NCBI GenBank assembly: GCA_047288015.1
Contig: CM103819.1
Coordinates: 32,561,354-32,625,353 of the forward strand
Origin: Mactra antiquata
Taxonomy: Eukaryota
Direction of reading: 5' to 3'
Length of the DNA: 64,000 bases
Shown: positions 4,672 to 60,664 of the stretch, piece after piece
How the letters are laid out: every line of letters starts with the position of its first letter
Numbering within the stretch: the first letter of the stretch is position 1
The notes under the pieces: generated by a model
The model's input: the letters and a program-made list of their open reading frames with translations, nothing else
What the model was told of the DNA's origin: nothing
Databases searched by the model: none
Position numbers and translations under genes: made by a program

Positions 4672-4985
4672 TTTTTTTTTGTTTTGGTTTAACGCCATAG
4701 CAACACATTGTATAGGTCATATCACGGCGGTCAGTCAACCTACTCACCGTTCCTGGAAAGGCTAAATCTCTGGATTTAGCTGTTAACCAGTTACTAGGCG
4801 CATACTTCCGTCAGTGACTGAAAACTGCCCTACATGATTTAGAATCAGTGGTAGGAGGGAGAATGGCCGTAGAAATAATTTCATGACCAAGCGCCACGAA
4901 AGTATGCCCCGCCCAGGGATCGAACCCACGACCCCTCGATCAGTAGACTTGCGCGCTACCGACTGAGCTAGCCGGGCGGGTCTGT
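4672..4985 (-). mobile_element. tRNA-derived SINE, subfamily A. The tRNA-like head is at the 4905-4985 end and the A-rich tail is at about 4672.
   Basis: The head is the reverse complement of 'gacccgcccggctagctcagtcggtagcgcgcaagtctactgatcgaggggtcgtgggttcgatccctgggcgg'. The body is shared with copies at 37036-37312 and 44516-44836. Flanking 10-bp target-site duplication 'taacctRtct'. Confidence 0.8.
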
Positions 4986-5513
4986 AACCTGTCTCAGATA
5001 GAGGGGATCGTGAGTTAGAGTCCAGCTACGATACATTTTTGTCCATGTGATAAAGTAAGCAAGTGAATATGAAGAATGTTAGTTAAGCACTGGTGCTGAC
5101 AGAATCGATGTTTAGGAGAGAGAACAGTCTGCCTCATATGACTCTCATGCCCATGTCATCAAATTTCTTACGACCGATTTTCGTCGTAAATCCTGTCGTA
5201 TCATATTACCATGTTATCGTAAGATTTTTATACCATGACCCCAAATTATTGAAAAGGGCTGAGATACAAGACAGTTACGTGTATTATTATGTGCTGTACA
5301 AATAAGCACGTGTATAGCCCCTGCTGTGTTATAACGGACTTAAGTAATGTGAAAAGTAATTTATATTGTTCAAAGCTAATTCTCAATATTGCTTTAGAAA
5401 GTAATATCTGTTTAGTTAAGCATCAGATTCAATTTTGATTCGTATCCATGTTGGTTGAATATTGATATTGATTGTATAACACTGGGCGGGGCGAGTATAT
5501 AATATATGTTATT

Positions 5514-5640
5514 AAATAAGTGATTTGATAAGGCCCTGTTATTTTTCGAGGGTAGTTGTATTGGCCCAAGGCCGAAGGCCGAGGGCTAATACGACTGTCC
5601 CGAGGAAAAATAACAGGGCCTGTATCAAATCACTTATTTA
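5514..5640. repeat. Long inverted repeat or hairpin, with arms of about 40 bp and a loop of about 45 bp
   Basis: 'ttaaataagtgatttgataaggccctgttatttttcgaggg' pairs with 'cccgaggaaaaataacagggcctgtatcaaatcacttatttaa'. Confidence 0.85.
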
Positions 5641-5699
5641 ATGACAAGTTTATTAAATAACTACTTACTGAACATCAACAAACGCGTCAAGTTCAATAA

Positions 5700-6600
5700 A
5701 AATCACCAGCGAACCTGGCGTTCCTTTTATATCTGTTTTGTTTTTCTACACGTTGTGACGAAATAATATAGGCTAAAAACGACTATGCCAAGAACGTACC
5801 GCTATGTACGAGACTCCACTATGTTAAAGATAATTACTGCTACCGGTCTCTTGAGAAAATAATTAATTGTAAATTGAGCTTGAACGCATTCAAAAACAAA
5901 ATGGCCGTCACTTTTAGCAATATTCATAACTGATATTGGTCCTGTTTTATCAACCAATCAGAGCGCAGATATTTGTTATTGGACCGGGGCCAATAAGTGT
6001 TATTGGCCCTATAACAGATTTCGGCCTTGTTTTCAGTTTTATTAAGCACGTTTTCCAGTATTGTGGAGTGAATTTGCCACTTTACAGGGCAAATAACACG
6101 TAGTTATTTAATAAGGCTTGTTAAAAATCAGTTTTCTTCTCAAACTGTATTTTTGATGACCTTTTACGTCATGTTCCTTTTACGTCTGTTTTTGCACCGT
6201 TTTTTTTCTACAAGTTATGATGAAATAATACAGGTTAAAAAAGACTCATGCCAGGAACGTACTGTTATGTACGAGACTCCACTATGTCAAAGATAATGAC
6301 TGCTACCGTTCTCCTGAGAGAATAATTAATTGTAAATTGGGTTTGAACGCGTACATGTACAAAATAAAATGGCCGTCATTTTTAGCGATAATCATAACTG
6401 ATATCGGCCCTGTTTTATCAATTAATCAGAACGCAGAAATTTGATATTGAACCGGAGCCAATAAGTGTTATTGGCCCTATAACAGATTTCGGCCCTGTTT
6501 TCAGTTTTATTAAGCAGGTTTTGCAGTACTGTGCAGTGAATTGGCCACGCTACAGGGCAAATAACACATAGTTATTTAATAATAGGTGTTCCAAATACGG
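5700..6600. repeat. Tandem duplication, 2 copies of about 470 bp each (5700-6130 and 6170-6600)
   Basis: Both copies contain '...ggccgtcacttttagcaatattcataactgatattggtcctgttttatcaaccaatcagagcgcag...gggcaaataacacgtagttatttaataa' with scattered substitutions. Confidence 0.85.
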
Positions 6601-7865
6601 TTCCTGATTTACAAAAAATTCAATTGGAAAAGTAACTGAGTTTTGAGCAAAGAGTTCGTTCTCAAGTTCTGTAACTACCGGTTCTGAGTGATTTCTATGT
6701 GAAACACGACAGTTCATAATATAAACGTACTTGTCTTTATCTAGCCATGAATGTCAATTGAGACTTCAAACCAAAAATAACAGTTTTCACAATAATGATA
6801 TATGCAAGAATCAAGATGTATAATATAATGATGGGTCGACTGTTTTCATACTGATTAGTTCTTGTTGTTGCTGCTTATATGATTATACATTCCGTATGTG
6901 TATGTAGATGTATGTATATGTATTGCGCAACGGTCCGGATTTTACTAATGCTTGTAAAAGTAGTCGCCCCTTGATGTAAAATACTATGTAAATGATTTGA
7001 CCATCGGTATTCTAGTAATTTCGCTTTCGGACTAGAATACTAAATGCTGGTCAAATTAAAAGTTTTATTTATATGGTGCTCATATGTAATTTATATTTTT
7101 CACCATTTGTCACATGTATGTATATGTTGACCGCGTGGGTCTATGACCTTCCGGTTTAAATTAAAATAAACTTTGAAACTTATGATTAATTAATATTGTC
7201 ATACAACTGGGGGTATATAAGTTGTATAGAAAATACATCGGGAGGTCAGTAAGAGAAGTCAGTAAGAAAGGGGGTCAGTCCGGAAGGCCAATCCAACATG
7301 ACACTTTGATGAGAGAGCTCTTGGGGTTCAGGTCGGGACTTCAGGGCCTAGACCTCAGCTGGAATGTGGCGTATAGTTGGTTAACTTACATGTTGTTAGA
7401 ACACTAAACACACAAAAACAAACTTTTTGAAAACATTTTATCTTCAAAAATTACAATATTTGCAAGTAGATAAAATAAAATAAAGCACCAAATATATAAC
7501 GTAAACATAACATAACAAAACATAGAAAAATGTAACAATTCAATGTGTGGTCGTGGTCAATCTCCGTAAACAGATATCCCATAGACCGCTGTCATAGGTA
7601 AAAAAAAGCGAGTAAGTGAGCGGAGATTTTAGATCGGGTTTTAATCAGGATGGGTCGTGGTAGACACATTTGTGACGTGATTTGATTGAGAATAGAACAT
7701 GCATCCCAAGCAAGTTTTCTGTGACTTGAATTGTCTTAGTATCGTTATATCCACATAGTGTCATCTAATCAAAATAAACATTGCTGTTATAGACAATGTA
7801 TAACACCGAATGACGAGCAAGTTCTATACACAGTCTAGCACTTCACCTATGCGTGTATTTGTCGA

Positions 7866-15923: not shown

Positions 15924-16388
15924 TTAACACATTTTTACTTTGGTACCATTGCTCAGTACCATATATATTTCACCAGCTTGTTCAACACTATGTTTACTAT
16001 GTGATTCAACACCAAACCCTGTTATAAAAACATTAGATATAATTATCAATAAAACAAGAAAGTTCCCAACTCTATCAAGACGATCAGCGAGTATACGCCG
16101 TGATTCGTCCGGTGGTGGTAAGGAGGTCTGGGGCGATTGCTCCTCGTATTCTTCAAATTTTCGCTCTATTGACCATATGATAAGCATGCAAAGAGTGAAT
16201 ACCACTTGTAGAACTATGGAACCAACTATGAAGACAAGGAGAGGGAAGAAATATTTATCATGTGTGTCCATTGACAACAAAGACTTTAACTGAGATACAT
16301 TTGCCATCATTAAAGCCACGTCCATGAGTTGATGAATAAAGTTTCTTTTTCCAACATACATGTTTGCCACACCGTGTTCCTTCATGTC
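15924..16388 (-). CDS. Ninjurin-like protein, copy 3, terminal exon. In this copy the exon 2 and exon 3 sequence is contiguous (D-MKEHGVANMYVGKRNFIHQLMDVALMMANVSQLKSLLSMDTHDKYFFPLLVFIVGSIVLQVVFTLCMLIIWSIERKFEEYEEQSPQTSLPPPDESRRILADRLDRVGNFLVLLIIISNVFITGFGVE...).
   Basis: Acceptor ttactag|GACATG at 16388. The ORF is continuous across the position where copies 1 and 2 have an intron (..SLQ|V..). It carries the ninjurin motifs 'DVALMMANVSQLK' and 'NVFITGFGVE'. Confidence 0.65.
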   Translation of the reverse strand, partial: DMKEHGVANMYVGKRNFIHQLMDVALMMANVSQLKSLLSMDTHDKYFFPLLVFIVGSIVLQVVFTLCMLIIWSIERKFEEYEEQSPQTSLPPPDESRRILADRLDRVGNFLVLLIIISNVFITGFGVESHSKHSVEQAGEIYMVLSNGTKVKMC

Positions 16389-23917: not shown

Positions 23918-24493
23918 TCATTCAACACGATTAATGAACCTTTTTAAGGCATTAGGAATTGGAAGCTTTACAATGTCTGTTGATTTCCAGGCACATTGTT
24001 CCAATATTTGTAATCTACAGAGAGCCTTTAGAGTCTTTACCACAGAAGAGCTCATATTAAGTTCATCTTTACAATACTTGAAAGCTTTTCTTTGTAGAGT
24101 TAGTGTTGGCTTGCCATCATATTGGTACTTTAATGCCTCGTTCAATGACTGAACAGTCATGTTTTCAAGCAGTGTTTCAGTAATTTCATGAATGTAGTCA
24201 ATCAATATAGCTTCATCATACTTTTGTTGCTTCTCAAATGTTTCAGGATGATAAAGAATAGAGTTACAGAAAACATTAATAGGAAAAATTCCATTCTCAT
24301 TACAGTTTGGATCAGCACCATTTTGAATTAAAAGTCTAAAAGTTGTAATGCTACGTTCATCCAAACCAAGTGGAATAGAGATAGCAAGAAATGCATGCAG
24401 AGAATTACCAGAAATATTTTCATCTTCAATTGGTCCAAATATAGAGGGGTTTGCACCATGGCGTAATAATGTTTCCGTACATTTGGTCACAAA
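23918..24493 (-). CDS. Continuation of the same ASB-like reading frame after the TGA: more ankyrin repeats plus a C-terminal SOCS box (..LKALCRLQILEQCAWKSTDIVKLPIPNALKRFINRVE*)
   Basis: It is in the same frame as 24494-25570, separated only by the TGA and one codon (..DTNIR-TGA-FVTKCTETLLRHGANPS..). The SOCS-box consensus (L..LCR..I......LPLP..L..) matches. The 'M' in the ORF track here is a GTG codon. Confidence 0.6.
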   Translation of the reverse strand, partial: FVTKCTETLLRHGANPSIFGPIEDENISGNSLHAFLAISIPLGLDERSITTFRLLIQNGADPNCNENGIFPINVFCNSILYHPETFEKQQKYDEAILIDYIHEITETLLENMTVQSLNEALKYQYDGKPTLTLQRKAFKYCKDELNMSSSVVKTLKALCRLQILEQCAWKSTDIVKLPIPNALKRFINRVE

Positions 24494-25570
24494 TCATCTA
24501 ATGTTTGTATCCTCATCATCAAAACGGCGCATTAAAGTTTTAACATTTCCGTACAAACAATGCAAAGCTGAAGGGAAAGCACCTCGACCAAATGCTGTCT
24601 GTACATTCTTTCCTTCATGCTCTGATTCAAAGTGCACTTCATTAAAATTAGGATCAACACCTGCATTTAAAAGGACTACCATACAGGCAGCAATGTAAGG
24701 AAAAGTTCTTCCGAAGTCAGATGCTGGAGTATGACTTATAAGACTATAAAGAGGGTAAGTTCGAAAAGGAATAGCACAGACAGGATTTTGTTTATGTTTT
24801 AATAAAACTGATGTGACTGCCAAAAATGATTCGTACCATGTTTTCTTAAAAGAAAAACAATATGAATATAACACATGATACAAATTCATTCCACCGAACA
24901 ATGATGTAAGGGAAGTATTACACTTCAGAAGAACATCTAAACACTCAGCATTAGCTTGCTTTAAGGCTGTACCAATGGCTGATTTAATATCTTCACTAGA
25001 GGGTCTTTGTTTTAATAATAATCTCAAGGCACTAGAAGAACTACTGGCACAAGCTGCTGATAAATGATTATCACTTCCTTTAATTCCTAGTTTAGTTCTA
25101 ATTGAAGAAACATCTAGAATTGATCGAATACAATCTACATGACCACATTCACCCGCAACATCTAATGGAGTAACCATGCTTGTTTCACTTGTCAAATTCT
25201 GTGAACTTTCTGTTGGCTTCTTTACCCATTTGAATTTAGTTCTTGTAGTAGAATAATCCTGAGGGCGCTCTTGTAATATCATTACAGAAATTGATCTGTT
25301 GCCAAAGTTAGCAGCTAGATGAATGTATGGGTGGTATTTTGGCTCATGTGGTGGTTTGAACAAACCCATAGCAAAAATCATCCCCACTGCTTCAATATTG
25401 TTGGCCATGATGGCATGATGTAACACATCATAGCCGCCCTCATCAGTCCAGGCAAGCAAATACTTCCTTTCACATTTCTCAAGACATTGTCTTACACTAC
25501 TAACGTCCTCAGTTGTGAGAATTTTCTTATATAAAGTTTTCTTCAAGTCTTCTATTTTTGCTGCCATCAC
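24494..25570 (-). CDS. Ankyrin-repeat protein, the N-terminal 358 aa of an ASB-like (ankyrin repeat and SOCS box) gene. It ends at an in-frame TGA at 24494-24496.
   Basis: Ankyrin-repeat consensus segments are present ('GGYDVLHHAIMANNIEAVGMIFAMG', 'TPLDVAGECGHVDCIRSIL', 'LLNAGVDPNFN'). The continuous ORF is 1074 nt. Confidence 0.7.
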   Translation of the reverse strand: MMAAKIEDLKKTLYKKILTTEDVSSVRQCLEKCERKYLLAWTDEGGYDVLHHAIMANNIEAVGMIFAMGLFKPPHEPKYHPYIHLAANFGNRSISVMILQERPQDYSTTRTKFKWVKKPTESSQNLTSETSMVTPLDVAGECGHVDCIRSILDVSSIRTKLGIKGSDNHLSAACASSSSSALRLLLKQRPSSEDIKSAIGTALKQANAECLDVLLKCNTSLTSLFGGMNLYHVLYSYCFSFKKTWYESFLAVTSVLLKHKQNPVCAIPFRTYPLYSLISHTPASDFGRTFPYIAACMVVLLNAGVDPNFNEVHFESEHEGKNVQTAFGRGAFPSALHCLYGNVKTLMRRFDDEDTNIR

Positions 25571-40575: not shown

Positions 40576-41019
40576 GTAAGTTATCAGTCCTTCGACATAT
40601 AATTATATAAATATCATGCGTCTAATGACTGGTTTTATTTAACTAAATTATGGATTTTATGAAAATGAGTCATAATAAACTAAGTAAGCAAACTTTACTA
40701 TATGTACCGTAAAATACCGAATAATTCTAAGCGATAATAGTTTTTTATTTCAAGAAAATCGTCCTTCATTTAATGAAATCGTCGAATGTTTCCCAAAAAT
40801 AGCCTAAAATACGATGTATGTCAAACAACGCGTCCTCTAAATGATAAGGAACAATGGTCTTTAGGGTCCGTTTCAGGCACCTGTGTTTTCAAACGCTGTG
40901 TTCGGACTACAAAGCTGCTTTTGAAATACTGTCACATTAAGATTTCTAAATGACATACATTGATTTCACTATTTGCGGAGCGTATTTATATACTTTTTAT
41001 GTCTATTCTTTTACACTAG

Positions 41020-42328
41020 GCGTTGCAAAATTAGAAAAGACGAGCAACAGTTACCATCACAACAACCCAGACGGCCACCTCCTCGTCCAAACTTTTTACA
41101 GCGCACATTAACTCAAGCACGCGATCGAATAATCCGGTCAAGACCTTTACCAAAGATTCCTGCAGATGCCGAGGGACAAACACTTCGTACAAAGGTCATT
41201 GACCAAGATCCTCAGTCCGGGTATTACGATAGTATTCGATTGGATCTTATTGACGTCAAAGATAACAATAACTACCCTAGCATCCAAGAATGCTATAAAA
41301 ACAACAAAATTCACAATGACATAATAAATCAAGTAGCTCCACAATCTTCAGTCGATTCGAGTTCGTCCTATATTCACCCTAGTGGTGTTCAAGTCCAACA
41401 TGACGACAGCGATGCCAATACGTTAGCCGTTAGCACAATTAGCGATAAGGTTGAACAAGATAACCACTATATATACATGCGTCCGGCAAAGGGAAGCAAC
41501 GTTGCTGATAATCAAGAAACCGATGACGTATACCTTAAATCAAGCAATACTAAACTGATTCAACAAGGCGGTGAAACGCTTGCAAAGAATGATACGCCAG
41601 TCTCTATTGACACAGACTCATTTTACGTGTACTCAAATAATTTCAGATTTCCCACCGGTGAACAACGTATTGATGGTAGTTATATTAATACTAAACCTAG
41701 TGTCGAAAAGATATCTCAGGGTTCAACACTTGTCCCTGAGCCAAAACATGAAAATGCAGAAAAATGTGAAAATGATACAAGCGCGCTGTATCTCAATGAC
41801 ATGCGTTTCAGTGACTATGAAAATGTTCAATGTACGAAACATTCAAGCAACAAACATGAAGACACAGACACTGAATCGCCTTATTCAAATTGTGTTAATG
41901 AAGTAAATCGAATTATCCAACACTCTGTGATTAATTCTGGGGGTAACGATACGCAGAATAGTGACACTTATATCCCTATGAATACGGGACAGACTGTTGT
42001 AGAGAGAGCCGAAGAGGCCAGAAGTACTGATTCTCATCTAAATAAGGACGCGCAAATCTGTGATGAAAATAGTATAAAGGAAAGTGCTTGTGAAACAGAC
42101 AGTTCAGACTACATGCCAATGGTCGGTTGCCGAAGAAATGTCGAAAAACAAATGTTGCAGAAACAAGACAGTACTTTTCCAAACTTAATGAGTTTCAAAG
42201 TGCATGGTGCATCAGACCAACACAATGGTGGCAATACTATAATGCATCCAGATGCACACTTAGAGAATGTATTGAAACCAAATAAAATCAAGCTAAAGCG
42301 GTATGTTAAGGAGAAGCGTCAGTCGTAG
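41020..42328 (+). CDS. Exon 5 of the membrane-protein gene: a cytoplasmic tail of about 435 aa, with a basic juxtamembrane 'RCKIRKDEQQ', a proline-rich stretch and several tyrosine motifs including YIYM and YMPM. Stop at 42326-42328.
   Basis: Acceptor cactag|G at 41017-19 completes the Gly codon left open by exon 4. This is the long ORF 40973-42328 in the track. It is acidic and rich in S, T, N and D. Confidence 0.55.
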
Positions 42329-48006: not shown

Positions 48007-48834
48007 TTACGACAGTAAACTTAATATGTCCTGTAGAAGTTCTAATATTGACTTCTGGTCACGTGATTTCCCCAGAACAACAACAACCAAGTCAGATATA
48101 ATACCAGCAGTGATTATATTGACATGTGTTTCACAAGTCTTACAGTTATAGTTGGTTGCTATGGTTTCATTTTTATAAAAATCAATGTCACGTAAATCAA
48201 TGTTATTGACATAATTCATTCTATTTTCTTTAACTGAATGTTCACCGATAAACGCTCCTGATCTGTTAGAACTATCCCTCTTAGTTTTGTTTATTTCATC
48301 ACCAACAATATCCCCACAACCATCACCATTGTCATCATCATTATATCCATCATTATCTTCACCAGCACTATCATCATCATTAAGTTTTTCATATCTTCCA
48401 TTATTATTATTCTTCTCTTGACATTGCTTTACTTCACGTCCTTCGTCGTCTCTCCCATATTCATCATTGCTCTGATTCAGACCAGCCTCTCCACTTACAT
48501 CCAGAACATCTCTGTGACACCTTTCATCTCTATGGCATCTTTCATCTCCCTTGCACTTTTCACCATTCGTGTTAAATCCATCGCGTCCTATAAAACACCC
48601 ACTCTTATCAACCATACATATAAAGTTAGTATTTAGCATTCCTACTGAAAACAGTGTCCGTTTTGGACTTTTCAAAAGGGAGACTATTGTCGGCGCTTCT
48701 GTCTCTGGTACTTCGAGATCTCCACATCGCAATATAGTATTCCCATTTGAATCAAATACATTCAAAGAAATTTCAGGTTTGAGCGAAGTTTCCTTACTCC
48801 AGAATTTTCTCACAGATTCTAGTTTAGATTCCAT
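48007..48834 (-). CDS. Candidate single-exon gene: a 275-aa acidic protein with an internal 'DERCHRDERCHRD' repeat, an N- and D-rich low-complexity region and a C-terminal hydrophobic segment
   Basis: It is the longest non-repeat ORF in this region. The ATG context is aaacaATGg. No family was recognised. Confidence 0.35.
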   Translation of the reverse strand: MESKLESVRKFWSKETSLKPEISLNVFDSNGNTILRCGDLEVPETEAPTIVSLLKSPKRTLFSVGMLNTNFICMVDKSGCFIGRDGFNTNGEKCKGDERCHRDERCHRDVLDVSGEAGLNQSNDEYGRDDEGREVKQCQEKNNNNGRYEKLNDDDSAGEDNDGYNDDDNGDGCGDIVGDEINKTKRDSSNRSGAFIGEHSVKENRMNYVNNIDLRDIDFYKNETIATNYNCKTCETHVNIITAGIISDLVVVVLGKSRDQKSILELLQDILSLLS

Positions 48835-50796
48835 TGTTTCTAAACTACCAACTATAAGCCTTGGTTATCAATGTTGATTCGCCGCCACGCTTCAAATTAT
48901 TGACAAAACACTCTACAAATGCACAATTCACGTTAAAATAAAGTACAGTGCGTTTTAAGTTTGCCTCATTGCTCAACATACTATTCACTGTTACATAAAG
49001 ACCTTTTATTTCGCTCAGTATTGATTCTGCTCAATGTTGTTGGGTTTTTTACAATAACTATTGCACAATGAAGCTCAACCGTATCCGCCAAATGCTTTCG
49101 TTAATAATTATTCCTTATCTCTTCCACAGTTACTTGTCATTTAATGTTACATTATGCTAGTTAACTAGAACGTAAATCTGTTGAATAACTTAAGGAAGGC
49201 AAATATCGACTGAAGCAAAGCTAATGTAAGTTTAATGGAACATATTCTACCTTTACCTCAATATGGATTTATCAGCCAATATCCTTTTATACGACTTTCA
49301 CCCAGACAGCGACAGATGCTGATTTTAATTAATGTAGAAATATTATTATGACTCATTGACTCTGGTTTATGATCGATATTGTAGGACTGCATTGAAGAGA
49401 GTAAACATAATAAAAGCCCAAGGGATCATTGTTATTAATTTTATTACCATAAATATGTAGTAAAGTATGATCATTTATAAACCGTGCAGGTTTGATTGAT
49501 GTGATAGTGGAATCAATGAACCTTATCACAAAACATTCTACGGTAAAAATCATATACACAGAAAACATTAATAACAACAATACTTTGCCTATCGATTCCA
49601 AACAAAAAACAACAACAAAGAAACGTTTAATTACTCACACTTTTGAACCCTGTTTCATTAAAAATGAGTATATCACTATTAATTGTAACGGAATGATTTT
49701 TAAAATGATGCATATATAAAAAAGCCACCCTTAACACAAAAACAAAAATAAAATATAGGTCGCCCTGCTGGTCTCTTAGAATGTCCACTTGTTTGACCCC
49801 CCATACAGGTCATTTTGTAGAATTTTTAGTAAAACATATAACATTGAGAAGTGACTTGTTCCAGTGTTTTCTTTAATATTAAAAATCATTATATATTATA
49901 TATAATACATGCATGACTCAATTGTCAAAATGTGTTGAGAAAATAAATATTTATTACATGGGCATTGTCTCAAAATTGGTGCTCTAAGCGCCCGTAACAC
50001 TAGCTTTATTATTCATTTCAGAACCAAAAGGCTTGTGTCCCGTAACCGTTTCTGCATTCTATATCATGTGCAAGAAATGCCGTTGTTGCGAAATATGGCT
50101 ACTGCTAGAAATGATAAAAATACAAAACTGTCAAACGCCGCTGTCTTAAAACTATTCTTCTTACGAAGGTGCTGTGCTAATTAACATAACATGAAAAACA
50201 AGCATACTGCAGTCTATGATCTTAATGACGATAAATACATTGTGTTTTATTGGCCAATATACAAAAATATCATTTGATTGTGCTGAAAGATAAAATATAC
50301 AATAATTTAATGTTCGTGGATTGTGCCCGGAGGGTTTCAAATATATTTGTTTAATTTTGATGTATGTGATATTTTTGTATTTCAAATACAAATGTCAACT
50401 GGCGTGTTTTGGGCGATAAGTATTTATTGAAATTGTTATCACATAAAATTTAAGTAGAACTGCGAGATGAGGGTATTTGCCAATTTATATTGAACTGTCA
50501 CATATGGTGTGTATACACTCCAAATTTAATAGACTATTTCCGGAATTCATTTTTTCGGTTTATTTTCCACGAGGTACAAACATACTTTTACTGTTACTAT
50601 GAAAATATGTGTATACGGATTTAATCCGTGTTTCTTGATTTTCAGCAATAATGTGTAGAAAACTTTGTTTGTACCGCCTGCGCACGGATGGCAAAACCCA
50701 TAAATGTGAGTTCCGAATTAAGTCTATTAAAGCCACTATACTCAATTACAGCAGATAAGAAAACAATCTTACAACCTTAAAGTCAATTACATATAA

Positions 50797-50963
50797 CCGA
50801 CTATGGTTTATTCCATAGTCGCGGTTATCCGGGATACGTTGGGTTTTATCCTTAACTTCCGTTAACGTATTCACCCATGACAATGCACGTGCTTTTCCGA
50901 ATGATATTCACTTTTCAACCGACCACCGGACAATAGGTATGCACTTATTATAGCTTGTATTTT
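50797..50963 (+). repeat. Split direct repeat A1, the 5' terminus of the tyrosine-recombinase retroelement
   Basis: 'ccgactatggtttattccatagtcgcggttatccgggatacgttgggttttatccttaacttccgttaacg...cttattatagcttgtatttt' is identical to 56921-57087 and 58264-58430. Confidence 0.85.
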
Positions 50964-51690
50964 TGTGTGTTGTTAATTTTGTTGATTATTTTAATATTGA
51001 GAATTGCTGATGTTTTTATTTAATGCTTGATTTAAAAAGCATAAATTTGTTAGGAGGTAATAGGACTGGTTTGTGATTACACATACACATATTATTTGTG
51101 TGTTTAAACCGAGCGTAGACCATAGAGCATTCTTAAGTGTTTCAATTTTGTTTTATTTGATTGAAGTGAATAGTTATAAATTATTGGAAAGGCATATTTG
51201 TAGGTAAGGGTTTATTGTATCAATAGTGATAGTAGGCTTATGTTAAACTTTTGATACTGGTTACCACGTGGCAGGTATGATGGCGTTTACCACGTGGCAT
51301 TGAAAATTTTTGCATGAGGTGTACGGGTAAGCATTATGAAATATTTGTTAGGTATTACAATGTTAGCTATTGTTACATGCATTTTTAAATTTGAACTTGT
51401 AGTTAATATTTGACCATGGTTACTATCATATGCAAGTTTATTTATCCAAATATTATTTCGAGGTATAGGTCATTTGAGCAAGGCGTGTAACACGTGGCGG
51501 TAATATAAATTCTCCCATTAGTTAAATTGTGTGTAGCGATTGGAGAAATGTTTTTAATGAAATAATCCAGCAACTGAGTTTTAAAACATAAGTCCAGTTG
51601 GTCCAACGAAATTGCTTGCTGTTGTTTAATTTCAAATTCAGGTATTATTGACGACCATTTATGTAAAACAATTCTTCAAGAGATTGACTT

Positions 51691-52572
51691 GTGTCTTTCA
51701 TCAAGATGGAAAACTCTAGTGACCCTGTACAAAGAGTGGAGGAACACGTGGAGGAAGACCAACCAGGTCCTGCCAAGAAACAAAGAGTGGAGAAAAATAC
51801 TGACAGTAGCAATGGTAATATAATTACATTAGATCTTGATATAGAAAGATTATTGCAAAATAGTAATGCTGCGGTTCATAGTATACATTCAAGTATTGGA
51901 AGTCATGTACCCTCTAGCATTAGGAGCAAAATTTCCTCAGGCCAATATGTTGATCTTGAAAATGTACTTTCTCAAGATAGTAATTTGAGCGAAGGAAAGG
52001 TTTGTGTTAATTTGTCTGGAGAACTAGCTATTAAACCAGACTCCAAAAAGGTTAAAATTAATAACCTTGATTCATGGACTGATGCCTTCATCATATTTAC
52101 TAGTATTTATTTATTGTCGCATCCTGATCAAAGTCAAGCACTTCTTAAATACATGCAAAACGTTCGAACAGGTGCGAAGCGTCATGGAGGTTTGGGTTGG
52201 AAGCTCTATGACGAACAGTTCAGAATGAAATTGGCCGCTGACCCTTCTATGTGTTTTGACAAGATTGACTATGAACTTTGGTTGCTATATATGACACCGG
52301 GTGGTGCATTACAAAAAACCCAAACTAATCCAAACTTTAGTCAATTTAATTATAAGAAATGCTATGATTTTAACTATAGATATTGTAGTAGAGTAGATTG
52401 TCAGTATAAACATCTGTGTATAATTTGTGGTTTAAAACATCCTTGTAGGTCGTGTTATAGAGCCAGAGGTACATCAGCGCCAAGTCTGCGGGCCTCTGTC
52501 CCCCAGGGCCAATATTCCGATATCAGACCAGGTAGTAAACCTAGACATACCGGTCCGAGAGCGGGTAAATAG
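51691..52572 (+). CDS. Retroelement ORF1: a Gag-like protein with a C-terminal zinc-knuckle-like motif, C-x2-C-x3-H-x4-C ('CIICGLKHPCRSC')
   Basis: 293-aa ORF, the first ORF after a leader of about 730 bp. Its position and Cys/His motif are typical of DIRS/Ngaro gag. Confidence 0.6.
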   Translation: MSFIKMENSSDPVQRVEEHVEEDQPGPAKKQRVEKNTDSSNGNIITLDLDIERLLQNSNAAVHSIHSSIGSHVPSSIRSKISSGQYVDLENVLSQDSNLSEGKVCVNLSGELAIKPDSKKVKINNLDSWTDAFIIFTSIYLLSHPDQSQALLKYMQNVRTGAKRHGGLGWKLYDEQFRMKLAADPSMCFDKIDYELWLLYMTPGGALQKTQTNPNFSQFNYKKCYDFNYRYCSRVDCQYKHLCIICGLKHPCRSCYRARGTSAPSLRASVPQGQYSDIRPGSKPRHTGPRAGK

Positions 52573-52615
52573 TTTAGGTTTCACTCCAATAAAAGCAAAT
52601 GTTCTTGAAAGTTTT

Positions 52616-54187
52616 TTGTGTTTATATCCAAGACAGGATGATGCAAACATTTTGAAAAATGGCTTTAAAAGTGGGTTCAAGATAAATTTTACAGGGCTTG
52701 TCTCAATTCAGGAGGTTAAAAATTTAAAAAGTGCTAACTCTCACATGAATGAGTTAAAGCAAAAGATTTTAAAAGAAGTTAAATTAGGTAGAATTATGGG
52801 TCCTTTTGACACTCCACCATGGAATAACTTAAAAATATCACCTGTTGGTCTGGTACCCAAATCTGATGGTTCATGGAGGTTAATCACCCACCTTTCTTAT
52901 CCTGCTGGTTCCAGCGTTAATGATGGTATAGATGATGATTTATGTTCGGTTTTTTATACTTCGTTTGACCAAGTTGCTGATATGGGTTTTTGCTTAGGTA
53001 GGGGTGTATTGATGGCAAAAAGAGATATCAAATCCGCTTTCCGTCTGTTACCAATCAATCCCTCTGATTTTCATTTGTTGGGTATCAAAGTTGATGGCAA
53101 ATATTATGTAGATAAAATGTTACCCATGGGGCTAAAGATAAGTTGTGCATTGTTTGAAAACTTTTCGACTTTCATACATTGGCTAGTTAGTTACTTGGCA
53201 AAATTAAATTCTTTAGATCATTACCTAGATGACTTCATATTTGCAGGCAAGGCTCAGTCTAGCGATTGCACAAAATTAGTAGATACATTTACAATGGTGT
53301 GCTCTAATATAGGAATTCCTATAGCGGAAGATAAATCAATAGACCCAACCACTGTTTTGGTTTTCCTAGGTCTTGTAATAGATTCGGTTCAAATGTGTAT
53401 AAAAATACCCCTGGATAAATGTCATGAGTTAATCAAAATTTTGAACGAATTGTTATCGAAAAATAAAATTACGTTACTTGAATTACAAAAATTGACTGGG
53501 AAATTAAATTTCTTTGGAAAAGCAATTCGTTGTAGCCGGGCATTTTTGCGTCGTTTCTATGATTTAATGACCCCTCTTAAGAAACCCCATCATAGATTAC
53601 GTTTGACAGAGGAAGTTAGGAATGATATGAAAATGTGGCTGACATTTCTTAAAACTTTTAACGGAGTGACGTACATTCCAAAGAGTGTATGGATAAGTAA
53701 CTGTGTATTAGAATTATTCACCGATAGTGCAGGGTCTGGTCATTTAGGTTGTGGTTGTTATTTTAAAGGTAAATGGGCATTTTGGGCTTGGCCGGATCAT
53801 TGGTTGAAAGAAGAGATTTTATCAGACATGACATTTCTAGAAATGGTGCCGGTTTTACTGTCTATGTATTTATGGGCTTGGGAATTAAAACAAAACAAAA
53901 TCATTTTCAATATTGATAATGAATCTTTGGTATCCATTTTGAATAAGCAGTCGTCTCGCTCGAAGCGAGTTATGCACCTGGTGAGAGAATTTATCTTAAT
54001 AGCTATGAAATACGACATTTGTTTTAAGGCTGTTCATATTAGATCAATTCATAATAATATTGCTGATGCTATTTCTCGAAAACAGTGGCTTCGTTTCAAG
54101 GAGATCGCACCTGCGGCATTAGAACTACCAGAGCCAATTCCGCACAAATTCCTATCAACAGTCTTAAAGATGAAGTTGACAGACTAG
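52616..54187 (+). CDS. Retroelement ORF2: reverse transcriptase plus RNase H
   Basis: RT motifs 'SPVGLVPKSDGSWRLITHLS', 'DIKSAFRLLP', 'HYLDDFIFAG' (the YxDD box) and 'FLGLVID'. RNase H motifs 'FTDSAGSG', 'EMVPV', 'FNIDNESLV' and 'HIRSIHNNIADAISR'. Confidence 0.85.
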   Translation: MCLYPRQDDANILKNGFKSGFKINFTGLVSIQEVKNLKSANSHMNELKQKILKEVKLGRIMGPFDTPPWNNLKISPVGLVPKSDGSWRLITHLSYPAGSSVNDGIDDDLCSVFYTSFDQVADMGFCLGRGVLMAKRDIKSAFRLLPINPSDFHLLGIKVDGKYYVDKMLPMGLKISCALFENFSTFIHWLVSYLAKLNSLDHYLDDFIFAGKAQSSDCTKLVDTFTMVCSNIGIPIAEDKSIDPTTVLVFLGLVIDSVQMCIKIPLDKCHELIKILNELLSKNKITLLELQKLTGKLNFFGKAIRCSRAFLRRFYDLMTPLKKPHHRLRLTEEVRNDMKMWLTFLKTFNGVTYIPKSVWISNCVLELFTDSAGSGHLGCGCYFKGKWAFWAWPDHWLKEEILSDMTFLEMVPVLLSMYLWAWELKQNKIIFNIDNESLVSILNKQSSRSKRVMHLVREFILIAMKYDICFKAVHIRSIHNNIADAISRKQWLRFKEIAPAALELPEPIPHKFLSTVLKMKLTD

Positions 54188-55086
54188 TTTCGGTTTCTTT
54201 GTCTAAGAACACAGTGGATTCTTATCAAGTTGGAATACGAAGATTTGAGTCATTCAGGAGCCTTTATGGAATGTCGTTATGCTGGCCACCAATAATCGAA
54301 CAACTCAGCTTATACTTAGCGAACCTATCTATACAAGGGTTGTCTTACAACACAGTTAAATTGTATATTTGTGCCATTGCTTTTCAATGTAAATTAAAAG
54401 GCGTTGAGGATGTCACAAAGAGTTTTGTTATACAGAAACTCTTGACTGGTATTCAAAAGTCATACAAGAAAAAAGTTAGGCTTCCTATAACAGTAGAAAT
54501 GTTGCAATCAATGCTGCCGAATTTATCATCTGTTTGCACGGATCTATATGAAAGCAAGCTATTTGGTGCTGCGTTTACCCTAGCATTCTTTGGTTTCTTT
54601 CGAGTGGGTGAATTTACAGTTACTAGGAAAGAGTATATGTTGAGAATAATCTCATTTAGAGACATTACTTTAGACTTAAAGGCTGGGACTTTGTGTATAA
54701 ATTTGAGATATTCAAAAACAGATCAAAATGGAAGAGGTGTTTTTATAAAGTTATTTAAGAATAATACTTTGATTTGTCCGGTGGAGAACATGTCTTCTTT
54801 TCTTCAAGTGAGACCGGATAATAAGGGGCCCCTGTTTTGTCACTTTGATGGCAGACCTTTGACTCGATATCAATTCACCGCTGTTCTAAAGAAGGCATTA
54901 GCGAGTGTTAACGTAGAATATTCGTATTATAAAGCTCATTCTTTTAGAATAGGTGCAGCATCAACCGCTGCAAAATTAGGTCATTCTGTAGAGGTAATAA
55001 AATCAGCAGGACGTTGGTCTTCCGATGCATTTAGAGGTTATGTTCAGCCAATAAATGACTTGCATAAAATGCCTCTGTTACTGTAA
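54085..55086 (+). CDS. Retroelement ORF3: a tyrosine recombinase of the phage-integrase type, overlapping the end of ORF2 in another frame
   Basis: Catalytic signature residues: 'FFRVGEF' (R), 'RYSKTDQNGRG' (K), 'HSFRIGAAST' (H-x-x-R) and 'GRWSSDAFRGYV' (Y). There is an N-terminal core-binding-like region. Confidence 0.8.
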   Translation: MASFQGDRTCGIRTTRANSAQIPINSLKDEVDRLVSVSLSKNTVDSYQVGIRRFESFRSLYGMSLCWPPIIEQLSLYLANLSIQGLSYNTVKLYICAIAFQCKLKGVEDVTKSFVIQKLLTGIQKSYKKKVRLPITVEMLQSMLPNLSSVCTDLYESKLFGAAFTLAFFGFFRVGEFTVTRKEYMLRIISFRDITLDLKAGTLCINLRYSKTDQNGRGVFIKLFKNNTLICPVENMSSFLQVRPDNKGPLFCHFDGRPLTRYQFTAVLKKALASVNVEYSYYKAHSFRIGAASTAAKLGHSVEVIKSAGRWSSDAFRGYVQPINDLHKMPLLL

Positions 55087-55213
55087 TTATCGACTCTAGT
55101 TTGCTCAATGTAATACATTAAATAAACGCATTTTAAAATGTATATGAAGGTTATACATGTTGAACGGGGGTTCTTGTTGTATAGTAGTTAATGGATAATT
55201 TTATGTCTATATT

Positions 55214-55813
55214 ATGTATGTACATAATTACTTATTTCTAGAATCTGTGGTGTGGATTATTGGATCTTCTATTGTAAAGAATGCATTTATTGCTGCAAGA
55301 CAAAATAGTCATTTGAATATCAAGAATACAACCGTATGGTGGCAAGGATATAGTGGCCTCTGTCTTGAAAACTTGCGGTCTAAAGTAAGGCTGTTAGGTT
55401 CTGTCAATAATGACAGACCAGATATAATGATAATTCATTGCGGTGGCAATGACATCGGGAAAATACCCGTCAAGGCAATCAGAAATATCATAGGTTTTAT
55501 TTTTGCTTTAATCAAGAAATATTACCCAAGTATTAAGATTATTTGGTCAGAGATTTTGCCAAGATCGAATTGGAGTTATTCTTGCAATATTAAAAAGATG
55601 GAAAGATGTAGAAAACGTTTGAACAGTTTTGCTGGCAAATTAGCCATAAGCTATGGTGGCTTATATATTAGACATCAGTCTATTTGCGAGAAAAGTCACA
55701 TGTATTTGAAAGACGATGGTGTTCATCTGAATACTGAAGGAAACATATTATTCCTTGCTAAATTAAAGCAATCAATTTTAGACTGTTTTAATGGCTTAAG
55801 TTACACAGAGTAA
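55214..55813 (+). CDS. Retroelement ORF4: an SGNH/GDSL-family hydrolase (esterase or lipase-like) with all four conserved blocks
   Basis: Block I 'IIGSSIVKN' (nucleophilic Ser). Block II 'QGYSG'. Block III 'IHCGGNDIG' (GxND). Block V 'DDGVHLN' (DxxH). Confidence 0.7.
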   Translation: MYVHNYLFLESVVWIIGSSIVKNAFIAARQNSHLNIKNTTVWWQGYSGLCLENLRSKVRLLGSVNNDRPDIMIIHCGGNDIGKIPVKAIRNIIGFIFALIKKYYPSIKIIWSEILPRSNWSYSCNIKKMERCRKRLNSFAGKLAISYGGLYIRHQSICEKSHMYLKDDGVHLNTEGNILFLAKLKQSILDCFNGLSYTE

Positions 55814-55942
55814 TTAAAAATGGGACGCGCTGATGCAAAGTGTATTCTTTTTTGTTTTAATTTGTCATTCGTCATTCGCTGCCGCAAACTTTGGGTTTAG
55901 TTTGGCGGTTGTCTGTTTTTATTGCATAAAAACCGACAATGT

Positions 55943-58900
55943 GGCATCCAGCGAAGCAGAATGACTTGTATGGATGTACATTTATTGTGATATAAACTCT
56001 TAATCTAGATGTACCACTGAATATTGCATCCCAGGGTACAATGCATATAATTGTCATTTGGTGCTATTTATGTGAAATTGAATTTGTATTGCATACCCAT
56101 TTGAGTCAATTGAATTTGTTGTTATGATACCTTGAATTTGCCATTATGTAAAATAATTTTTGCCTACAGTGCTGTAGGTTGGCTGTCGCTTCTTTGTCTG
56201 TTGCTCTTCAAAATTAGTAAGGTTGAGCTAGTCCCTATACCTTCAGAAAGGTCGGCGGCTCAAGCGATGGCCAGTTTTGCTCAGTTGGCTATTTATAATT
56301 TGCCGAGTTGGCTATTTACTTTTGATACTTTTAATTCGCAACTTGTAAAGTAAGTTTTGCCTACAGTGCTGTAGGTTGGCTGTCGCTTCTTAGTCGTAGG
56401 CGGCTGAAGCGATGGCCCGTTTTGCCCAGTTGGCTATTTATATAGTTTTGCCTAGTTGGCTATTTATATTTTGCCGAGTTGGCTATTTACACAGTTTGCC
56501 GAGTTGGCTATTTAGATTTGGCCGAGTTGGCTATTTACACAGTTTGCCTAGTTGGCTATTTAGATTTTGCCCAGTTGGCTATTTACATACTTTTGCCCAT
56601 TTGGCTACTAACATACATTTGCCTAGTTGGCTATTTGCTACTTAATTTCATATGCTTTTGACTTAAATACAGTTACATGAAATTGGTATGTATACAAATT
56701 CAAGTTTTTGCTATTTAAAAGAATTGCATCAGTCGCGCCCATTTTTCGCCATACTTACAATATTAAATCATTAAATGTAGAGTTATTTACTTCATGGTTT
56801 GTTTTTACTTCTTTACAAATATCAATGATTGTGTGACAGCGATTTTTCCAATAGAGAACATCTATACACCAGTACTAAGCTGGAACACAATCATTGCTAC
56901 CAGAGTATTCCAGGATAAAACCGACTATGGTTTATTCCATAGTCGCGGTTATCCGGGATACGTTGGGTTTTATCCTTAACTTCCGTTAACGTATTCACCC
57001 ATGACAATGCACGTGCTTTTCCGAATGATATTCACTTTTCAACCGACCACCGGACAATAGGTATGCACTTATTATAGCTTGTATTTTAAACCCACCCACC
57101 CAACCCACATTAAATTTTATAAGCTTGCTGCGCTGTTATATTTATATTTTCAGTAGTACAAATATGGAATACTCCAAGAACTTGTGATTGATTTGTTGAA
57201 CATTATACATTAGTTCAAATCGTTAACAGCAATCATCAACTGGAGTAAATACCACATAGGATGGTGCGACTGACGTTAAACAACTGGCATCCAGCGAAGC
57301 AGAATGACTTGTATGGATGTACATTTATTGTGATATAAACTCTTAATCTAGATGTACCACTGAATATTGCATCCCAGGGTACAATGCATATAATTGTCAT
57401 TTGGTGCTATTTATGTGAAATTGAATTTGTATTGCATACCCATTTGAGTCAATTGAATTTGTTGTTATGATACCTTGAATTTGCCATTATGTAAAATAAT
57501 TTTTGCCTACAGTGCTGTAGGTTGGCTGTCGCTTCTTTGTCTGTTGCTCTTCAAAATTAGTAAGGTTGAGCTAGTCCCTATACCTTTAGAAAGGTCGGCG
57601 GCTCAAGCGATGGCCAGTTTTGCTCAGTTGGCTATTTATAATTTGCCGAGTTGGCTATTTACTTTTGATACTTTTAATTCGCAACTTGTAAAGTAAGTTT
57701 TGCCTACAGTGCTGTAGGTTGGCTGTCGCTTCTTAGTCGTAGGCGGCTGAAGCGATGGCCCGTTTTGCCCAGTTGGCTATTTATATAGTTTTGCCTAGTT
57801 GGCTATTTATATTTTGCCGAGTTGGCTATTTACACAGTTTGCCGAGTTGGCTATTTAGATTTGGCCGAGTTGGCTATTTACACAGTTTGCCTAGTTGGCT
57901 ATTTAGATTTTGCCCAGTTGGCTATTTACATACTTTTGCCCATTTGGCTACTAACATACATTTGCCTAGTTGGCTATTTGCTACTTAATTTCATATGCTT
58001 TTGACTTAAATACAGTTACATGAAATTGGTATGTATACAAATTCAAGTTTTTGCTATTTAAAAGAATTGCATCAGTCGCGCCCATTTTTCGCCATACTTA
58101 CAATATTAAATCATTAAATGTAGAGTTATTTACTTCATGGTTTGTTTTTACTTCTTTACAAATATCAATGATTGTGTGACAGCGATTTTTCCAATAGAGA
58201 ACATCTATACACCAGTACTAAGCTGGAACACAATCATTGCTACCAGAGTATTCCAGGATAAAACCGACTATGGTTTATTCCATAGTCGCGGTTATCCGGG
58301 ATACGTTGGGTTTTATCCTTAACTTCCGTTAACGTATTCACCCATGACAATGCACGTGCTTTTCCGAATGATATTCACTTTTCAACCGACCACCGGACAA
58401 TAGGTATGCACTTATTATAGCTTGTATTTTAAACCCACCCACCCAACCCACATTAAATTTTATAAGCTTGCTGCGCTGTTATATTTATATTTTCAGTAGT
58501 ACAAATATGGAATACTCCAAGAACTTGTGATTGATTTGTTGAACATTATACATTAGTTCAAATCGTTAACAGCAATCATCAACTGGAGTAAATACCACAT
58601 AGGATGGTGCGACTGACGTTAAACAACTGGCATCCAGCGAAGCAGAATGAATTGTATGGATGTACATTTATTGTGATATAAACTCTTAATCTAGATGTAC
58701 CACTGAATATTGCATCCCAGGGTACAATGCATATAATTGTCATTTGGTGCTATTTATGTGAAATTGAATTTGTATTGCATACCCATTTGAGTCAATTGAA
58801 TTTGTTGTTATGATACCTTGAATTTGCCATTATGTAAAATAATTTTTGCCTACAGTGCTGTAGGTTGGCTGTCGCTTCTTTGTCTGTTGCTCTTCAAAAT

Positions 58901-59606
58901 TAGTAAGGTTGAGCTAGTCCCTATACCTTTAGAAAGGTCGGCGGCTCAAGCGATGGCCAGTTTTGCTCAGTTGGCTATTTATAATTTGCCGAGTTGGCTA
59001 TTTACTTTTGATACTTTTAATTCGCAACTTGTAAAGTAAGTTTTGCCTACAGTGCTGTAGGTTGGCTGTCGCTTCTTAGTCGTAGGCGGCTGAAGCGATG
59101 GCCCGTTTTGCCCAGTTGGCTATTTATATAGTTTTGCCTAGTTGGCTATTTATATTTTGCCGAGTTGGCTATTTACACAGTTTGCCGAGTTGGCTATTTA
59201 GATTTGGCCGAGTTGGCTATTTACACAGTTTGCCTAGTTGGCTATTTAGATTTTGCCCAGTTGGCTATTTACATACTTTTGCCCATTTGGCTACTAACAT
59301 ACATTTGCCTAGTTGGCTATTTGCTACTTAATTTCATATGCTTTTGACTTAAATACAGTTACATGAAATTGGTATGTATACAAATTCAAGTTTTTGCTAT
59401 TTAAAAGAATTGCATCAGTCGCGCCCATTTTTCGCCATACTTACAATATTAAATCATTAAATGTAGAGTTATTTACTTCATGGTTTGTTTTTACTTCTTT
59501 ACAAATATCAATGATTGTGTGACAGCGATTTTTCCAATAGAGAACATCTATACACCAGTACTAAGCTGGAACACAATCATTGCTACCAGAGTATTCCAGG
59601 ATAAAA
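55943..59606 (+). repeat. Tandem array of about 2.7 copies of a 1343-bp unit (a B plus A unit) forming the 3' terminal region of the retroelement
   Basis: The period is visible from identical ORF-track entries at 56132, 57475 and 58818. The units are nearly identical, with single substitutions such as 'gacttg' versus 'gaattg'. Confidence 0.9.
56400..56640 (+). repeat. 21-bp minisatellite 'TTTGCC[G/T]AGTTGGCTATTTA[C/G]A', about 10 copies. It is repeated in each 1343-bp unit, also at 57743-57983 and 59086-59326.
   Basis: 'ttgccgagttggctatttacacagtttgccgagttggctatttagatttggccgagttggctatttacacag...'. It generates the spurious 73-, 77- and 60-aa ORFs in the track. Confidence 0.9.
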
Positions 59607-60664
59607 CAAGCTTTAGACACAAACTAACCTTCTCAAACTGTTTTGTTTTCACAATTTAAGTGAAACAAAGTGACCATTTCTTAAAAAAGGCGGTTCCTTT
59701 TATAAGAGCTCAGTACACACATTTCTTTGTTTATGATAAATACAATTAACTCAACATAGCTGTGTTTAGCTAAACAATACAATTTGGAGGTTGTTTAATC
59801 TTTCACAAGACTCTATCCCAACCAGTTTGTGATCAAACCTCAGTTTTAGTATATAACAGACAAATTTTACTTTCGGTTTCGATCTATTTCACTTTGAAAT
59901 GCAGTGAATAACGTTGAAAGATATAAGTTTAAATGACTTTTGACAATTTTTCTTCGATAAATTGATACAACATACATCTGTATCAGTTAATTGTTTCCAT
60001 TTATTTTACAGTCCATGTACAGGTTATATTGTCTTGATATAGGGGCTTTAACTGACTATAAATAGGGTGTCCATTTTAGAATGTGTTTTGATCATGAGAT
60101 TTTATATGAATGACAGTTAAATCCAATTGGACAATACCCTCATATGCAAACACTCTTTTATCAAAGTCCGATTAGTAGACAGTGCATTTGCAGTATCCAT
60201 TTTGAATATCACAGAAGAATTAGCTCAAAATTCACAGCTCAGAGGGTGTATTTAGATTTAACACTACTGTATAACCTAAGAAATCAGATCAATGAGAAAT
60301 CCGGAATCCTCTGACTTCTGAACAATTTTCTTGGCCCTATTTTGGACCCTGAGTGCAAAAACAACCTGAGAAAATCAGACAAAATCTGTACAATACGAAT
60401 GTTTTCTTCAATCCAGAACTTGTTCAGATTTCTCAAATTACACTATATTACTTCGACTCAACATTTACACTATAGAAAACAGTCTGTTTTCCGGATACTT
60501 ATTCTCGTACCCAGAGGTTATCAAGAAAATCTTGATGGTTTGCGAGAATGCTTGCGGGTTTATTCCATTGACTATTAAAAACTGTTACACTTGAACGTTT
60601 AAGAGAAATAGACCAATAAGCCTGTACATTGTACCGACTTAGAACTTAACAAAGTACTAAAATG

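Follow-up and report, generated by a model that had tools for sequence, protein, structure and literature searches.

The last open reading frame (ORF) of a Ngaro-type retrotransposon in a 64,000-nucleotide (nt) stretch of Mactra antiquata DNA (contig CM103819.1, positions 32,561,354 to 32,625,353; the whole stretch is called the window, and positions are counted within it) encodes an intact esterase of the SGNH type. We favor, with moderate confidence, a reading in which this is the esterase gene of a recently inserted Ngaro element, akin to the esterases of long interspersed nuclear elements (LINEs), expressed as a spliced ORF1–esterase product and serving a membrane-linked role. The chances appear about even for the more specific proposal that the Ngaro esterase is made from a spliced subgenomic mRNA, fused to the N-terminus of the gag-like ORF1, and that it has a common ancestry with the esterases of CR1/L2, RTEX, and Penelope elements.

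A hydrolase (Hydro-SGNH) ORF following the tyrosine recombinase is described for some Ngaro elements, with its function unproven (PMC9210276, PMC7192593, PMC6681497), which bears out the mention of such an ORF in the initial annotation of the window. For this ORF, PMC9210276 cites Goodwin and Poulter (2004) together with Poulter and Butler (2015). The presence of such an ORF is already published, and the window esterase adds one more example. What goes beyond the published Ngaro hydrolase is twofold: a His-Ser signature that LINE esterases also have, and indications of a spliced message that joins the ORF1 N-terminus to the esterase.

An intact SGNH esterase gene

The ORF and its functional residues are located as follows.
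55214–55813, + strand: SGNH esterase ORF, 199 codons plus stop, recognized by Pfam, predicted fold, and homologues
55268–55270, + strand: codon of S19, the block I nucleophile
55436–55450, + strand: H75-C-G-G-N79, in which the "transposon-specific" His precedes block III and its oxyanion Asn
55547–55549, + strand: codon of S112, the "transposon-specific" Ser
55715–55726, + strand: block V, D168-G-V-H171, before the last helix

This ORF is a real, intact gene of the SGNH type. At the stop-codon density of the window, 199 codons free of stops have a chance of ~2.5e-6, and the translation matched both PF13472 (Lipase_GDSL_2; E 4.2e-11, 44.1 bits) and PF00657 (E 4.8e-7, 30.6 bits) above the curated cut-offs of 32.9 and 23.6 bits, respectively. 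The AlphaFold model (mean predicted local distance difference test, pLDDT, of 90.5; predicted template modeling score, pTM, of 0.88) has five strands in alternation with helices, and the ORF thus combines a profile score above the curated threshold with a flavodoxin-like three-layer fold of five parallel strands. Block I (G17-S18-S19) lies where strand 1 (residues 11–17) ends and helix 1 (from residue 19) starts. Block II (G45-Y-S-G48) follows strand 2 and provides the oxyanion hole residue G48, and block III (G77-G78-N79-D80) follows strand 3 and provides the oxyanion Asn, N79 (55448–55450). In solved esterases, the residues matched to the GGND of block III are GiND and GtND, and D168-G-V-H171 aligns with the DGVH of 3p94 and 5b5s. 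With the four blocks at the positions demanded by the fold, the Ser-Asp-His triad complete, and the two oxyanion residues in place, the product is an SGNH-fold protein, as the initial annotation had proposed from the same Ser, Gly, Asn, and Asp-His residues.

The N-terminus of the ORF as drawn is a different matter. Homology to relatives begins at residue 10, residues 1–7 have a pLDDT below 50 in the model, and the first nine codons span a T-rich tract ending in TAG. This part is therefore probably non-coding, and the coding exon of the esterase probably starts at 55242.

Probable expression from a spliced message

The related loci examined come from other organisms (L001, L002/L003, L004, L005, L006/L007, L008, L009, and L011). 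At all nine loci, a TAG or CAG acceptor-like site follows a T-rich tract and precedes the strand-1 Trp codon by 8–20 nt. It is in one and the same phase throughout, so that the downstream exon opens with two bases of a codon. A strict T-rich acceptor criterion, with a chance of ~0.05 per locus, was passed at eight of the nine, the loci being related and the trials hence not independent. Many database proteins, mostly oyster RefSeq entries named "uncharacterized protein LOC..." with isoform X numbers, have the ORF1 N-terminus joined directly to the esterase at this point. In the Saccostrea cucullata gene model (L009), exon 1 comprises ORF1 codons 1–83 plus 1 nt and is followed by a phase-1 intron of 3340 nt with the donor CAAG|GTACAA and the acceptor tatatttAG|AT, which holds the ORF1 core, the reverse transcriptase (RT)/RNase H, and the recombinase. 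In addition, a contig of 1177 nt from run SRR6058506 (L010) matches the Crassostrea angulata element L011 at 99% in two blocks and lacks exactly 3047 nt of it, bounded by CAAG|GTACAG and aaatttcAG|AT. A deletion with such canonical GT-AG ends implies a splicing event, regardless of whether L010 itself is the transcript or derives from one as a retro-copy.

Compared with the oyster protein, the window ORF is homologous from precisely the junction codon onward. Each of the four full-length elements tested has phase-1 G|GTA donors in the variable N-terminal part of its ORF1. The only such donor in this region of the window element is AATG|GTAATATA at 51815, and the equivalent donors are AATG|GTAATGTA in L005, TCAG|GTAATGCA in L004, and CAAG|GTATAAAT in L002. 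The window acceptor is ttatttcTAG|AA, with exon 2 from 55242. The proposed exon and intron are as follows.
51706–51814, + strand: proposed exon 1, the first 36 ORF1 codons plus 1 nt
51815–55241, + strand: proposed phase-1 GT-AG intron of 3427 nt in the window element, modeled on the intron annotated in the same phase in L009 and on the one that L010 lacks relative to L011

In the spliced subgenomic message, 51706–51814 would be joined in phase 1 to 55242, and the splice would remove the ORF1 core, RT/RNase H, and recombinase, much as in a retroviral env mRNA. In the predicted product of 226 amino acids (aa), MENSSDPVQRVEEHVEEDQPGPAKKQRVEKNTDSSN-E-SVVWIIGSS..., the esterase would be fused to the N-terminus of ORF1. 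As for retroviral env, one splicing event at a 5'-proximal donor would take out gag-pol-like sequence and bring a 3' accessory ORF to the 5' leader. Some retroviruses retain the first gag codons in the spliced env message. The analogy is one of mechanism, with no sequence relationship, and the Ngaro product would be a soluble esterase and not an envelope glycoprotein. The esterase is thus probably made from a spliced message and not from the ATG at 55214, a splice that is seen in the oyster relatives and extrapolated from them to the window element. ORF1–esterase splicing is not mentioned in the Ngaro literature examined, in which the original papers are represented by later citations.

Several observations weigh against this interpretation. 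For the window element the splice is inferred, and the candidate donor, AATG|GTAATATA, receives a score near zero from a vertebrate donor matrix. The window also differs from most relatives in having an in-frame ATG (55214) able to start an unspliced product. The run from which L010 derives may or may not be RNA-seq, and the first 40 nt of this contig do not match L011 and end in a T-run plus AG, so L010 may represent another copy or a transcript with a different 5' end. The RefSeq models may be partly ab initio. Several database proteins (P0022, P0065, P0148, and P0100) join recombinase sequence, and not ORF1, to the esterase, and in L002 (3550–3600) and L004 (3714–3770) the esterase frame runs on in frame directly after the recombinase stop. 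Other expression routes, such as read-through, fusion, or the use of other donors with the same acceptor, may therefore exist in the family.

A stand-alone fourth ORF, as drawn in the initial annotation, would yield a free enzyme of 199 aa, translated from the ATG at 55214 on unspliced or full-length RNA by reinitiation or leaky scanning. The ATG stands in frame 13 codons before the strand-1 Trp, L001 and the proteins P0001 and P0004 likewise open with a Met shortly before block I, and the weakness of the donor proposed for the window element speaks for this possibility too. However, the ATG would belong to a fourth cistron, with over 4 kb of RNA ahead of it, and five of the seven related loci lack any ATG between the upstream stop and block I. 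The first nine residues that it would add are unconserved, poorly modeled, and translate the T-rich tract ending in TAG, and spliced forms are documented in oysters. We consider independent translation of this ORF rather unlikely, and the ORF from 55214 is probably not the expressed unit.

Two other sets of donors were considered for the esterase acceptor. The candidate CT|GTAATT, which overlies the stop codon of the recombinase, was rejected as out of phase when read from the sequence. Candidates inside the recombinase of L002, L006, and L008 were not adopted, since they coincide with conserved coding motifs and the window offers no good equivalent.

The L011 element (3001–6998 of that locus, Crassostrea angulata CM046781.1) is represented in RefSeq by two isoforms, X1 (P0186, 358 aa) and X2 (P0117, 316 aa). 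P0186 has 42 more residues than P0117 between the ORF1 N-terminus and the esterase, which suggests alternative splicing within the element.

Conservation of the catalytic residues

An exhaustive profile search returned 3341 cluster representatives at E<=1e-3, of which 234 were found at E<=1e-30. Residue conservation was counted over 191 family domains, with denominators that vary by position, and was used in place of the ratio of nonsynonymous to synonymous substitutions (dN/dS), as synonymous sites would be saturated at the 34–54% identity of the related esterases. The nucleophile S19 is kept in 120 of 124 domains (97%). The oxyanion hole residues G48 and N79 are kept in 151/171 (88%) and 162/183 (89%), and the triad residues D168 and H171 in 140/156 (90%) and 135/157 (86%), respectively. 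The check on the block I Ser and the block V His that the initial annotation had proposed as a test of its assignment thus leaves that assignment standing. The most conserved positions of the Ngaro esterase family are H75 (182/184) and S112 (185/187), at 99% each. Mean column identity in the seed alignment of the family is 36%.

Based on these counts, the catalytic residues of the family are held under selection. They also bear on the possibility that the SGNH fold serves as a non-catalytic, lipid- or protein-binding module, as in the OSK domain of Drosophila Oskar and in the insect homologues of platelet-activating factor acetylhydrolase (PAF-AH). The triad and both oxyanion residues are present, and retention of the catalytic set at 86–97%, at a mean column identity of 36%, is hard to explain without selection on catalysis. 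A purely binding role for the domain is accordingly improbable.

Many family members fall below the Pfam GDSL thresholds and have no domain annotation; in oyster RefSeq they are listed as "uncharacterized protein LOC...". Pfam scans of longer database proteins also gave fusions of RT, recombinase, and esterase, which were set aside as they look like gene-model artefacts.

Relationship to LINE esterases

When the family profile was compared with solved structures, the best match was the ORF1p esterase of zebrafish ZfL2-1 (PDB 4c1b_A; E 8.9e-8, 35.2 bits). The next natural protein was 6njc (23.9 bits), at rank five behind three GDSL-like scaffold or design entries. An hhalign comparison of the Ngaro family with the ZfL2-1 esterase gave a probability of 95.8%. 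In ZfL2-1, H191 and S228 are conserved only in transposon-encoded esterases and are hydrogen-bonded in the protein core (Schneider et al. 2013, PMC3905857). H75 and S112 of the window ORF align with residues H60 and S97 of the 4c1b chain, which correspond to H191 and S228 of ZfL2-1 by a numbering offset verified at G165 and N195. Cellular SGNH enzymes have Leu or Met at the H75 position and Cys, Asp, or Gln at the S112 position in the printed alignments.

At 19% identity across the columns aligned by hhalign, the resemblance to ZfL2-1 is remote, and block I of ZfL2-1 does not fall within the printed alignments, two points that limit the functional reading drawn from ZfL2-1. Fold searches did not return 4c1b, which formed a domain-swapped dimer in the crystal (PMC3905857), and the link accordingly rests on sequence profiles. 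The view that groups the Ngaro esterase family with its ORF1p counterparts in CR1/L2, RTEX, and Penelope elements is well supported by the profile match and the His-Ser pair, as compared with one solved sequence. No earlier link of Ngaro esterases to LINE esterases was found in the literature examined, where the original Ngaro papers are represented through papers that cite them.

The window esterase resembles that of ZfL2-1, a CR1/L2-clade LINE of Danio rerio, in its catalytic set, in the buried His-Ser pair, and in being encoded by a retroelement. The placement of the domain differs. LINEs carry the esterase at the 5' end, as an ORF1p domain preceded by a coiled coil, whereas the Ngaro esterase is a separate 3' ORF of an element that uses a recombinase; in LINE and Penelope elements it belongs to the first ORF, whereas the Ngaro esterase would join the ORF1 N-terminus only after the proposed splice. 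In contrast, cellular and bacterial SGNH esterases, including sialate O-acetylesterase (6njc/7pzg), a GDSL lipase (3p94), PAF acetylhydrolase Ib (1bwp/1wab), and Escherichia coli TesA/TAP (1u8u), show 14–24% identity, and such enzymes lack the His and Ser at the H75 and S112 positions in the printed alignments and are not encoded by mobile elements. Rotifer Terminons and some long terminal repeat (LTR) elements also carry GDSL esterases (PMC6431247), and the GDSL module is thus recurrent among retroelements.

Possible role of the esterase

The ZfL2-1 esterase slowly hydrolyzes p-nitrophenyl acetate and binds phosphatidic acid, phosphoinositides, acidic phospholipids, and liposomes, whereas neither binding of oligo(A) RNA nor phosphoesterase activity was observed (PMC3905857). 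By analogy to this biochemistry, the Ngaro esterase could be a low-turnover carboxyl-esterase or an acyl-binding module, and in the course of retrotransposition it might link either the ribonucleoprotein of the element or a host factor to membranes of acidic phospholipids. The most likely role for the Ngaro protein would be that of an acyl-esterase or lipid-binding partner of the Gag-like protein, acting at membranes in particle assembly or trafficking. This partnership is suggested by the homology to ZfL2-1 and by the ORF1 N-terminus on the predicted spliced product. What counts against it is that activity, substrate, and lipid binding of Ngaro esterases are all extrapolated from ZfL2-1. Of the roles put forward in the initial annotation, one in membrane or virus-like-particle biology gains indirect support from the lipid binding of ZfL2-1, and one in processing of the RNA or DNA intermediate gains none from the properties of the ZfL2-1 enzyme.

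A virus-like function has also been considered, in which an O-acetyl-esterase acting on cell-surface sugars or membranes would serve as a receptor-destroying or entry enzyme for cell-to-cell or horizontal spread, on the model of the hemagglutinin-esterase (HE) proteins of influenza C and coronaviruses or of the proposal made for rotifer Terminons. No hydrophobic N-terminal signal or membrane-spanning stretch was seen on inspection of the ORF or of the predicted spliced product, which argues against an extracellular role of this kind. Moreover, the element has no env-like ORF, the structural neighbors in a viral structure library are generic phage tail esterases only, and the closest sequence relative is an intracellular ORF1p esterase. 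Both versions of this idea are highly improbable.

Organization of the Ngaro element

The element occupies about 50791–59607 (8.8 kb) and comprises a gag-like ORF, RT/RNase H, tyrosine recombinase, and esterase, within split direct repeats. The esterase is the last of four ORFs on the same strand, between the recombinase and the B1 repeat. The other features of the element are as follows.
50791–50963, + strand: A1, the 173-nt split direct repeat at the 5' end, which matches 56915–57087 and 58258–58430 at 99.4% identity
51706–52572, + strand: ORF1, gag-like, from the first ATG; no Pfam match, homologous to ORF1 of related elements
52616–54187, + strand: ORF2, RT and RNase H; RVT_1 E 2.2e-8 (above cut-off), RVT_3 E 3.6e-4
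54085–55086, + strand: ORF3, tyrosine recombinase; Phage_integrase E 1.9e-5, 25.0 bits, below the 27.1 cut-off
55942–59607, + strand: 3' split direct repeats; by self-comparison a unit of 1343 nt in 2.73 copies, 99.8–99.9% identical between copies
55942–56914, + strand: B1
56915–57087, + strand: A2
57088–57284, + strand: first spacer X, 197 nt
57285–58257, + strand: B2
58258–58430, + strand: A3
58431–58627, + strand: second spacer X
58628–59607, + strand: B3
56419–56636, 57762–57979, and 59105–59322: tandem arrays of 23–24 nt in the B repeats

Based on ORF order, repeats, and domain content, the element is a Ngaro-type tyrosine-recombinase retrotransposon and is apparently intact. Read from the translation, the C-terminus of ORF1 has a knuckle-like (CCHC-like) motif, C-x2-C-x3-H-x4-C (CIICGLKHPCRSC). 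ORF3 is taken as the recombinase despite its Pfam score below cut-off, since it gives tblastn matches of 30–39% to the recombinase region of related elements and its translation displays the motifs HSFRIGAA...GRWSSDAFRGY. A Pfam scan of ORF1–4 detected no methyltransferase domain, which DIRS and PAT elements do have. ORF order, Pfam matches, and repeats bear out the location of the esterase downstream of the recombinase in a Ngaro-type element, as given in the initial annotation.

The repeats follow the Ngaro scheme A1...B1-A2-B2 with two variations, a spacer X after A2 and one extra A-X-B unit. The oyster relatives are arranged A1...B1-A2-X-B2, with the spacer at 8981–9202 in L009 and 7780–8034 in L011, and spacer X (197–255 nt) is therefore typical of the family. 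Unequal recombination or multimer integration could have produced the extra A-X-B unit, or it could be an artefact of the assembly. The repeat identities of 99.4–99.9% and the four open ORFs make the insertion look recent. No second copy of the element was found in the 64-kb window.

At all eight related loci, the esterase directly follows the recombinase on the same strand, and the esterases are 34–54% identical. Given this gene order and a family that has 234 representatives even at E<=1e-30, we regard the esterase as a conserved accessory gene and a regular component of related Ngaro elements, and the term "cargo" used in the initial annotation is misleading. Although the element has no obvious need of an esterase and many Ngaro elements do without one, the idea of a passenger, a host esterase gene that lies beside the element or was recently captured by it and has no part in transposition, is next to untenable given an ORF inside the element between recombinase and B1, in a position kept across these loci at such divergence, and spliced to the element's own ORF1 in oysters.

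The order of gag-like, RT/RNase H, tyrosine recombinase, and SGNH hydrolase ORFs, the split direct repeats, and the lack of a methyltransferase are as in DIRS-53_XT and DIRS-54_XT of Xenopus tropicalis, so far as these are described in the sources consulted. The window element differs from them in that its host is an invertebrate, bivalve-like and not amphibian, its ORFs do not all overlap, and it has the 197-nt A2–B2 spacer and one extra A-X-B unit.

Each B repeat contains approximately nine tandem copies of a 23–24-nt motif, TTTGCCNAGTTGGCTATTTA, which can also be read as a 48-nt period; the array may be an array of binding sites or a regulatory region. The 742-nt leader that separates A1 from the ORF1 start at its first ATG (leader at 50964–51705) contains 14 ATG triplets, unusual for a scanned 5' untranslated region, and may harbor a further 5' intron or depend on internal initiation.

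Outside the element, the window contains a Ninjurin-family ORF (15924–16385, - strand; Pfam E 4.8e-19) and ankyrin-repeat and SOCS-box ORFs (23918–25570, - strand), host genes by which it can be recognized as animal nuclear DNA. The nearest named homologues of the esterase are from bivalves. Two further ORFs, at 40973–42328 (+ strand, 451 aa) and 48007–48834 (- strand, 275 aa), gave no Pfam match. The latter, ~2 kb upstream of the element, has much low-complexity sequence of acidic residues and Asn.

Implications

Oyster "uncharacterized protein LOC..." isoforms of the kind described here are Ngaro products and not host genes, which is of consequence for annotation. The retroelement esterase is among the few retrotransposon-encoded enzymes without an assigned role, and the window element, compact and apparently intact, is suited to a mutational test of esterase function. 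Taken together, the LINE-like His-Ser pair, which the Ngaro esterase appears to have in common with that group, and the apparent splicing to the N-terminus of ORF1 point to a function that is common, transferable, and tied to the Gag-like protein. If the proposal is true, a recombinase-encoding retrotransposon would use splicing in the style of retroviruses to regulate an accessory protein, and the "ORF1–esterase" would be an exchangeable module common to retroelements that integrate by target-primed reverse transcription and those that integrate by tyrosine recombination.

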